From a virus (lineage: Duplodnaviria > Heunggongvirae > Uroviricota > Caudoviricetes): a stretch of 30,379 nucleotides of DNA. The DNA lies in the IMG/VR virus record IMGVR_UViG_2896595138_000001, positions 1 to 30,379 of that record; one strand, written 5' to 3'. Under the pieces are notes generated by a model. The model searched no databases. It saw only the letters and a program-made list of their open reading frames with translations, and was not told where the DNA came from. Each line of letters begins with the position of its first letter. Positions within the stretch are counted from its first letter, which is position 1. The position numbers were made by a program, and so were the translations under genes. This document shows positions 6,834-7,182 of this stretch, piece by piece.

Positions 6834-6862
6834 TTGCAGATGTGATGACATATGGTTATTAT
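6834..6862 (+). promoter_or_regulatory. Candidate promoter for the tRNA cluster (TTGCAG-17-TATTAT)
   Basis: -35 at 6834-6839 and -10 at 6857-6862, about 9 nt upstream of the first tRNA 5' end. Confidence 0.4.
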
Positions 6863-6871
6863 TCTGCCTCC

Positions 6872-6948
6872 GGCCCTTTAGCTCAGTTGGTCAGAGCGAG
6901 CGACTCATAATCGCCAGGTCGCTGGTTCAAGTCCAGCAAGGGCCACCA
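6872..6948 (+). tRNA. tRNA with CAU anticodon, Ile2 (lysidine)-type by similarity to ileX; Met not excluded
   Basis: Cloverleaf: acceptor GGCCCTT/AAGGGCC, anticodon loop ACTCATAAT, T-loop GGTTCAAGTCC, 3' CCA. Confidence 0.85.
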
Positions 6949-6949
6949 A

Positions 6950-7026
6950 CCACCACTAGCTCATCCGGATAGAGCATCAACCTTCTAAGTTGACGGTGCG
7001 AGGTTCGAGTCCTCGGTGGTGGGCCA
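6950..7026 (+). tRNA. tRNA-Arg (anticodon UCU)
   Basis: Acceptor CCACCAC/GTGGTGG, anticodon stem TCAAC/GTTGA with loop CTTCTAA, T-arm CGAGGTTCGAGTCCTCG, 3' CCA. Confidence 0.8.
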
Positions 7027-7028
7027 GC

Positions 7029-7104
7029 GCCGACTTAGCTCAGCAGGCAGAGCAACTGACTTGTAATCAGTAGGTCACCAGTTCGATTCCGGTAGTCGGC
7101 ACCA
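7029..7104 (+). tRNA. tRNA-Thr (anticodon UGU)
   Basis: Acceptor GCCGACT/AGTCGGC, anticodon stem ACTGA/TCAGT with loop CTTGTAA, T-loop TTCGATT, 3' CCA; close to recalled E. coli thrT. Confidence 0.85.
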
Positions 7105-7107
7105 TAT

Positions 7108-7182
7108 GCGGGCATCGTATAATGGCTATTACCTCAGCCTTCCAAGCTGATGATGCGGGTTCGATTCCCGCTGCCCGCTCCA
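7108..7182 (+). tRNA. tRNA-Gly (anticodon UCC)
   Basis: Acceptor GCGGGCA/TGCCCGC, anticodon stem TCAGC/GCTGA with loop CTTCCAA, T-arm GCGGGTTCGATTCCCGC, 3' CCA; close to recalled E. coli glyT. Confidence 0.85.

Follow-up and report, generated by a model that had tools for sequence, protein, structure and literature searches.

A four-gene tRNA cassette with a putative promoter of its own upstream of the lysis genes in a decayed ipaH prophage

The DNA analysed here is a stretch of 30,379 bp (hereafter the window; positions 1 to 30,379 of IMG/VR virus record IMGVR_UViG_2896595138_000001), and it is a decayed lambdoid prophage of Shigella or enteroinvasive Escherichia coli that carries ipaH. At positions 6834-7182 it holds, on the plus strand, four closely packed transfer RNA (tRNA) genes behind a putative promoter. 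This cluster represents one of several gene compositions of a modular tRNA cassette that is already known and is widespread in lambdoid phages, where it lies between the antiterminator gene Q and the lysis/moron region, and the cluster is already annotated in RefSeq copies of the same DNA. As a feature it is ordinary for lambdoid prophages, and the points that can be added to what is known are modest: the switching of anticodons in the second gene (slot 2), the host-derived Thr-Gly pair, the footprint of the promoter, and a ten-out-of-ten association with ipaH. Our searches of the literature found no description of this Ile2-Arg-Thr-Gly cassette, nor, in the searchable literature, of any of these four points.

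The tRNA genes and the cassette family

ARAGORN calls exactly four tRNA genes across the whole window, all on the plus strand, and the Rfam tRNA model RF00005 (gathering score 29) matches each of them with E-values from 1e-13 to 8e-10. They are tRNA-Ile2 (CAU) of the ileZ/ileX type at 6872-6948 (70.5 bits), tRNA-Arg (UCU), which belongs to the variable slot-2 lineage, at 6950-7026 (56.4 bits), tRNA-Thr (UGU), a near-copy of thrU, at 7029-7104 (69.8 bits), and tRNA-Gly (UCC), the equal of glyT, at 7108-7182 (64.9 bits). The spacers between them measure 1 nt (A), 2 nt (GC) and 3 nt (TAT), the 3' CCA is encoded by all four genes, and their anticodon loops are those of ileX, argU, thrU and glyT. 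The first-pass annotation of this DNA, made by a model from the sequence, had read the region as a CAU/UCU/UGU/UCC cluster with 1-3 nt spacers; both programs accept all four cloverleaves and reject none, which confirms that the genes are real.

ARAGORN labels the CAU gene as an elongator methionine tRNA, a label ruled out by its overall identity and by its ileX-type base pairs. The gene matches K-12 ileX at 69 of 77 positions, compared with 54 of 77 for both metT and metU, and its acceptor stem carries C4-G69, C5-G68 and A73 as ileX does, where metT has U4-A69 and A5-U68. These are pairs on which E. coli TilS relies (4:69 and 5:68; PMC11947777). For the identical sequence the annotation pipeline PGAP gives tRNA-Ile. 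Judged by its sequence the CAU gene is thus an Ile2 tRNA for AUA, as first proposed, with its lysidine modification presumed, and it needs the Ile2 label and not the Met label that it bears in ARAGORN output and in some phage records.

The third and fourth genes are close to those of the host. The Gly gene is identical to K-12 glyT over 75/75 positions, and the Thr gene agrees with K-12 thrU at 74/76, both differences being located in the D-loop. Of 5,426 complete E. coli genomes, 5,425 give a match by way of their core copies of these genes. In the K-12 thrU-tyrU-glyT-thrT operon the two genes are separated by 209 nt including tyrU; the phage genes lie 3 nt apart and are host-like from their first base to the CCA, without any host flank. 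Most likely they were acquired from the host thrU-tyrU-glyT operon or have been homogenised with it.

The Arg(UCU) gene has another history. Counted on the alignment, it is ~86% identical to the Lys(UUU) gene that occupies slot 2 in related cassettes, and 79% identical to argN(UCG) of the Shiga toxin (Stx) phages; its identity to argU is 75%, and the argO-type Arg(UCU) gene found in slot 3 of other cassettes is visibly the one from which it differs most. A copy of argU or of argO is therefore excluded on sequence. The gene has a C1-G72 pair and a CCRCCA acceptor strand, contains no non-canonical pairs in the Infernal alignment, and shows the D-loop A14-U-C-C-G18-G19-A20, C35 in the anticodon and G73 as discriminator. 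Arginyl-tRNA synthetase recognises its substrates by A20, C35 and a purine at 73, and the gene thus bears the elements expected of a substrate of this enzyme. From its sequence we read it as a re-anticodoned tRNA of the slot-2 (argN) lineage.

To place the cluster among its relatives, IMG/VR was scanned with the invariant 31-nt anticodon/T-arm core of the Ile2 gene, which gave at least 120 loci; ARAGORN was then run on these, on reference loci, on the window and on six loci from a genome scan (see below). At least nine architectures were found. The commonest is Ile2-Arg(UCG)-Arg(UCU) with at least 58 loci, followed by Ile2-Arg(UCU) with at least 29, by Ile2-Lys(UUU)-Thr-Gly and the window type Ile2-Arg(UCU)-Thr-Gly with at least 15 each, and by several rarer ones; the 15 of the window type are the window itself, loci L001 and L002, the six loci of the genome scan and six from IMG/VR. 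The Ile2 gene of the window differs at 3 positions from the commonest of at least 10 sequence variants, and its own variant occurs at least 13 times. In annotated examples the cassette lies after one of four Q types or after ant or helix-turn-helix (HTH) genes, and before holin genes, stx2AB or other genes. We thus see a modular family with a fixed promoter and Ile2 head and with exchangeable slots downstream.

Slot 2 is the most changeable part. Across the cassettes its lineage is found with the anticodons UCG (argN of the Stx phages), UCU and UUU (Lys), and between these versions there are compensatory changes in pairs 3-71 (A-U here, G-C elsewhere) and 7-67 and in two anticodon-stem pairs, so the fold appears to have been under selection while the anticodon changed. 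Slot-2 Arg(UCG) genes alone come in at least 34 distinct sequences among the IMG/VR loci listed (L012-L131). Slot-2 genes of the Arg(UCG) and Lys(UUU) types have U73 as discriminator, which is atypical for E. coli Arg and Lys tRNAs, and the common Lys version has an A-C mismatch in the T-stem.

Two further loci show irregular genes. In E. coli RMDEC332 (L140, 1829-1900) the fourth gene has a glyT backbone with the anticodon UAC (Val; changes C35A and A38G) and lacks 1 nt of the 3' acceptor strand; it is a copy in decay or one whose anticodon has shifted. In E. coli 52F4 (L007, 3106-3185) 80 nt lie between the Ile2 and Thr genes and begin in a slot-2-like manner with CCGCCACTAGCT; neither PGAP nor ARAGORN calls a tRNA at 3106-3185, and the segment looks like a decayed slot-2 gene.

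Promoter, flanks and prophage setting

A sigma-70-type promoter, TTGCAG-17-TATTAT, is predicted at 6834-6862 on the plus strand (-35 at 6834-6839, -10 at 6857-6862) from a consensus scan and from conservation; its TATTAT ends 9 nt before the first tRNA gene. The consensus scan itself sets the register slightly differently, as TTTGCA-18-TATTAT, with 9/12 matches. The discriminator 3' of the -10 hexamer is C-rich (TCTGCCTCC), and the consensus of this segment across loci is both C- and G-rich (TCTGCGCCC); by analogy, we infer a resemblance to stringently controlled promoters of stable RNAs. Transcription is predicted to start 0-3 nt ahead of the first tRNA, at ~6869-6872.

What points to promoter function is that the motif stands still while its surroundings change. 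In seven loci with otherwise unalignable flanks the -35 TTG and the -10 TTATTAT are invariant and in register, and over 48 distinct 80-nt upstream sequences both are conserved at 90% or more amid variable columns. When the window is compared with 14 other copies of its own variant, the promoter segment 6833-6871 shows 0/530 differences and the tRNAs show 10/4354 (0.23%), as against a divergence of 5.3% in the upstream flank and 1.2% in the downstream gap. The hexamers had been proposed at this very place as the cluster's own promoter; they are present there, and their assignment to the cassette rests on this phylogenetic footprinting.

Upstream of the promoter lies a hairpin with an intrinsic terminator (~6708-6786, plus strand; terminator at 6755-6783, GCCCGC-TTTAT-GCGGG followed by T7). 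RNAfold gives the segment 6708-6783 a free energy of -35.6 kcal/mol with z = -3.9, although a simple terminator scan did not list it. This terminator would close the upstream unit ~50 nt before the tRNA promoter, and in other variants of the cassette a terminator abuts the -35. A sub-threshold isrK-like Rfam match was seen at 6709-6782 (19.9 bits, E = 0.11), and the segment 6708-6786 might encode a small RNA with its own terminator, similar to 6S or IsrK, if it is not just the terminator of the upstream ant gene.

Downstream, a gap of 677 nt without a credible open reading frame (ORF) extends over 7183-7859 on the plus strand, in what is the moron/toxin slot of other phages. We considered whether tRNA-Gly and the holin gene might enclose an unrecognised toxin or moron ORF, and rejected the idea: the one long ORF there (7227-7703) is without a Pfam match, PGAP annotates no gene in the gap in identical DNA, and gap homologues in the phage collection come to only five records with short, weak matches. 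The absence of a toxin ORF noted at first reading is thus borne out. The gap does contain an imperfect hairpin at 7297-7385 (31-nt arms, 84% complementary, 27-nt loop; fold z = -3.6) and, at 7440-7465, a second hairpin that resembles a terminator and carries a T-run. At a permissive threshold, the search for other Rfam families in 6660-7900 gave only sub-threshold noise, that is, miRNA-precursor matches on 7297-7385 and the isrK-like match.

The lysis genes follow 677 nt after tRNA-Gly, in agreement with the proposed location of the cluster upstream of a lysis cassette. All three are on the plus strand and were identified by Pfam and by tblastn with the proteins of the related locus L001: a P21-type holin at 7860-8075 (Phage_holin_2_1), a lysozyme at 8075-8638 (Phage_lysozyme) and Rz at 8568-8972 (Phage_lysis). 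The holin is 100% identical to that of the relative. The lysozyme ORF has lost its normal stop and is 187 aa long, compared with 165 aa for RrrD of the relatives, and homology of Rz stops at residue 114/156. Homology between the window and L001 is limited to 6663-8812, and its left edge falls only a few bases away from where the upstream gene ends; everything from the terminator through promoter and tRNAs to the lysis genes therefore belongs to a single mosaic block.

That upstream gene, directly 5' of the tRNA unit, encodes an ORF6N-domain antirepressor (ant; 6107-6664, plus strand; Pfam ORF6N E = 7.5e-20), whose protein is 89% identical to the ORF6N protein of the intact relative VL40. It is preceded by an antirepressor-operon leader at 5857-6055 (plus strand) with Rfam matches at gathering level (RF01394, RF03163, RF01695), in which the c4 a1/b1 target lies at 5857-5909, isrK at 5870-5944 and the C4 antisense RNA at 5971-6055. 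Together, 5857-6664 forms a P1/P7 immI-like c4/ant module within a lambdoid prophage, and in VL40 the c4/ant module is located between a Q-like DUF1133 gene and the tRNA cassette. In the window, ant occupies the site at which relatives have the Q-like DUF1133 gene, which in them is the nearest or second-nearest gene upstream.

The intact relatives, from enteroinvasive-type E. coli, show two orders, DUF1367-DUF1364-DUF1133(Q-like)-tRNAs-holin and DUF1133-[isrK/c4-ant]-tRNAs-holin, and their DUF1133 protein also matches the Pfam model Phage_antitermQ. No homologue of DUF1133, DUF1364 or DUF1367, and hence no Q-like antiterminator, was found in the 30,379-bp window. The position of the cassette between Q and the lysis genes would thus hold by homology to the intact relatives, with Q apparently lost here.

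The remainder of the window fits this picture of decay. At the left junction are the DUF2511 core gene (1-342) and the SraC/RyeA-SdsR small RNA locus (463-607), followed by a truncated lambda-type integrase (1032-1772) and an excisionase (1738-2034), both on the minus strand, the RalA antitoxin RNA (2130-2308), a first copy of the insertion sequence (IS) element IS600 (2771-3927) and a transposase remnant (~3939-4475). Between Rz and the gene for the small terminase subunit lies a TrkH/TrkG-family potassium-transporter gene in three ORF fragments (9151-10888); these fragments are very AT-rich (36-42% GC) and AUA-rich. The terminase large-subunit ORF ends at 13313, and just 3' of it is an IS110-family element (13546-14742, minus strand); head and tail genes and the second IS600 (24308-25464) come next. 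At the right end of the prophage are ipaH3 (27261-28976, minus strand; 571 aa with LRR and NEL domains) and CssrB, a Shigella small RNA (29105-29287). With four IS insertions or remnants, no Q and a truncated integrase, the prophage is clearly defective.

Codon usage, distribution and possible role

We compared codon usage in 29 prophage ORFs (6,226 codons, IS genes excluded) with that in 41 K-12 core genes (14,526 codons). Five codons cognate to the four tRNAs are enriched in the prophage: AUA with an odds ratio of 4.1 (Fisher p 5e-12), AGA with 5.2 (p 1e-9), AGG with 7.0 (p 6e-9), ACA with 2.2 (p 2e-6) and GGA with 2.6 (p 3e-10). Ranked by enrichment among the 61 sense codons, AGG, AGA, AUA and GGA take places 1 to 4 and ACA place 6. 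The enrichment of AUA, AGA and AGG had been predicted for prophage genes, ipaH and the trkG-like gene, and it is indeed shared by both ipaH and the trkG-like fragments. It is stronger still for three of the codons in 34 entry-region genes of pCP301 (pINV), with AUA at 12.4x, AGA at 11.5x and ACA at 3.8x, next to 5.8x for AGG and 2.5x for GGA; here ACA ranks fifth and GGA twelfth.

The distribution of the cassette is narrow. At thresholds of at least 90% coverage and at least 98.5% identity, it was found in exact form in 10 of the 5,426 complete E. coli genomes, and ipaH is present in exactly ten of these genomes, the same ten. A scan of 185,579 GTDB species representatives found the Arg-Thr junction in two genomes alone, S. 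flexneri SFBU1023 and E. coli ECMA0423, each of which holds it three times. None of the S. flexneri copies is the locus of the window itself: they are 98.3-98.8% identical to it and have other IS junctions; at two of the three loci an IS cuts the downstream homology, at ~7853 and within the holin gene (~7949), while the promoter and tRNAs are intact in all three. The co-occurrence with ipaH fits selection for the cassette, and it equally fits physical linkage to ipaH on one phage type.

Based on these data we suggest that the cassette is probably an autonomous tRNA operon that supplies phage, moron and virulence genes with a higher gene dosage of the low-copy decoders for AUA, AGA, ACA and GGA. 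Host sigma-70 RNA polymerase would start at TTGCAG-17-TATTAT just ahead of the first tRNA; intact relatives would in addition transcribe the cluster as part of Q-modified late transcription that arrives from upstream, whereas in the window, which has no Q-like gene, the cassette promoter would be the only evident source of expression. The tetracistronic precursor would probably be cut by RNase P at each 5' end, and the 1-3 nt trailers trimmed to the encoded CCA by 3' exonucleases, as judged from E. coli tRNA operons with short spacers. TilS would then turn C34 of the CAU tRNA into lysidine, allowing charging with Ile and reading of AUA. In K-12 argU, thrU and glyT are single genes, and Ile2 is encoded by ileX and ileY. 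The four phage tRNAs would add gene copies for decoders of AUA, AGA(/AGG), ACA/ACG and GGA/GGG, and would in this way serve the codons most over-represented in prophage genes, in ipaH and in AT-rich pINV genes.

Several points weigh against this reading. The promoter matches the consensus at only those 9 of 12 positions, and three promoter-like sites were found where 1.9 are expected by chance; taken alone, the consensus match is thus no better than chance, and it is conservation that supports the promoter. The 14 copies compared for conservation are related by descent, and the Thr and Gly genes may also have stayed free of changes through gene conversion with host thrU and glyT. A bias towards A-ending rare codons is general in AT-rich acquired DNA, so the match between tRNAs and codons is partly expected from composition; UCA, AAU and UUA, which the cassette does not serve, are enriched as well, and the core sample consisted of 41 K-12 genes and not of the host's own genome. 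With the prophage defective (the IS insertions and remnants, the missing Q and the truncated integrase), a benefit to phage late genes is moot here. Finally, constitutive transcription would need a terminator between tRNA-Gly and the holin gene, and any such terminator is putative.

As a rival explanation, the cassette might be a passive passenger, a set of functional-looking relics linked to the ipaH prophage that makes no measurable contribution to the cell. It would then have stayed intact because it offers a small target, because its copies descend from a recent common source, and through gene conversion with thrU and glyT. The heavy decay of the surrounding prophage (two IS600 copies, the IS110-family element, the truncated integrase, the absent Q) is in line with this, as are a 350-bp target that is unlikely to take IS hits, the damage to the fourth tRNA gene of RMDEC332 and the decayed slot-2 gene of 52F4; linkage on one and the same phage type would also predict the ten-of-ten co-occurrence with ipaH. 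We nonetheless hold it to be unlikely, given that the promoter is unchanged and the tRNAs nearly so next to far more divergent flanks, that compensatory substitutions preserve the slot-2 cloverleaf across lineages, that the promoter is footprinted over very divergent contexts, and that the cognate codons rank at the top for enrichment. Less probable again, in our view, is that the tRNAs are made solely from a Q-antiterminated late transcript after induction and are silent in a Q-less remnant, or that the motif is itself the Q-dependent late promoter PR'. The cassette is indeed always part of the late operon, with Q on one side and the lysis genes on the other, the consensus match of the motif is modest, and an unterminated constitutive promoter facing an intact holin gene would be hazardous. 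Yet the same motif is found after at least four unrelated Q types and also after non-Q genes (the ORF6N ant gene and the gene for an HTH protein), and Q proteins such as those of lambda, 82 and 21 are specific for their own cognate promoters; for these reasons we take the motif to be the cassette's own sigma-70 promoter rather than PR'. The strong terminator directly upstream here, which in other variants abuts the -35, gives the layout of a separate unit, and the hexamers do not differ at all among the copies.

We give least credence to a role in counter-defence, by which the cassette, and above all slot 2, would make good the loss of host tRNAs to anticodon nucleases and not adjust codon supply. 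Such nucleases are known to attack Arg and Lys tRNAs, colicin D acting on tRNA-Arg and PrrC- or PARIS-type enzymes on tRNA-Lys; slot 2, moreover, is unusually variable, with its many UCG sequences and its switching between Arg UCG, Arg UCU and Lys UUU, and has an atypical C1-G72 pair. This is nevertheless a highly improbable explanation, as the four anticodon loops of the window equal those of the host, with no sign of nuclease-evading mutations, and the Thr and Gly genes are plain host copies; nor did a nuclease gene turn up, although no search was aimed at one.

The gene-dosage operon can be extended to a pathoadaptive role: with about three copies per genome and a constitutive promoter of its own, the cassette might be retained in decaying ipaH prophages for its supply of AUA/AGA/ACA/GGA decoders, which would otherwise limit translation of ipaH and of the type III secretion system of pINV. 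We regard this extension as doubtful. If true, it would tie tRNA supply to virulence-gene expression in Shigella, and as a hypothesis it is cheap to test. As a side branch of this idea, slot 2 may be a natural site of anticodon re-assignment on one backbone (UCG/UCU/UUU), with slot 4 following in one strain (UCC to UAC). For annotation, the cluster is of use in that it marks the late-operon/moron slot of the ipaH prophage.

Comparison with known systems

The best-known member of the family is the ileZ-argN-argO cluster of the Stx phages (933W, Sakai and 1717 types; for 933W our statements rest on database annotation and general knowledge). It starts with the same Ile2(CAU) gene, at 3 differences from the commonest sequence, behind a TTGCAN-17-TATTAT promoter located 9 nt upstream as in the window, and it occupies the same map position, with the Q/nin region ahead of it and the moron and lysis genes behind. 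Short spacers, encoded CCA ends and a slot-2 gene of the argN lineage are likewise shared. The first-pass annotation had noted a mirrored position; the shared Ile2 gene, promoter and map position show that the resemblance is one of homology and not only of analogy. The two clusters differ in slot 2, which has the anticodon UCG and U73 in the Stx phages but UCU and G73 in the window, and in what follows: the argO-type Arg(UCU) gene is absent from the window, which has the host-derived Thr(UGU) and Gly(UCC) genes instead. Unlike the Stx phages, the window also has neither stx nor another ORF before the holin gene.

Another member of the family is the Ile2-Lys(UUU)-Thr-Gly cassette of E. coli lambdoid phages (PhiR47_1, vB_EcoS-689R5 and prophages of porcine enterotoxigenic E. 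coli), which agrees with the window in its four-gene order, spacing, Thr-Gly pair, promoter and site upstream of the holin gene and is 90-94% identical to it in DNA over the cluster. The difference lies in slot 2, where UUU and UCU versions differ at 11 of 77 nt, including C35/U35 and the discriminator; the hosts of the Lys cassette are not ipaH-positive.

The thrU-tyrU-glyT-thrT-tufB operon of the host resembles the window in its Thr (74/76) and Gly (75/75) genes and in their relative order, while tyrU, thrT, the 209-nt separation and the flanking sequence are all missing from the window, which has the phage promoter in their place. Largely the same set of tRNAs, and the same logic, is found in the pRARE and CodonPlus helper plasmids, which supply extra ileX or ileY, argU and glyT (and thrU) for the expression of AT-rich foreign genes in E. 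coli. These plasmids are artificial and carry leuW, proL and argW in addition, and the analogy is a functional one only.

Lastly, SfI, Sf6, ST64T, PS3 and P21, lambdoid phages of Shigella, Salmonella or E. coli, have tRNA genes (Asn, Thr) at the same position downstream of Q, with a Thr(UGU) gene in common, and SfI shows an ACA bias relative to its host (PMC3636060). Their composition is Asn GUU and/or Thr UGU, compared with Ile2, Arg, Thr and Gly in the window.

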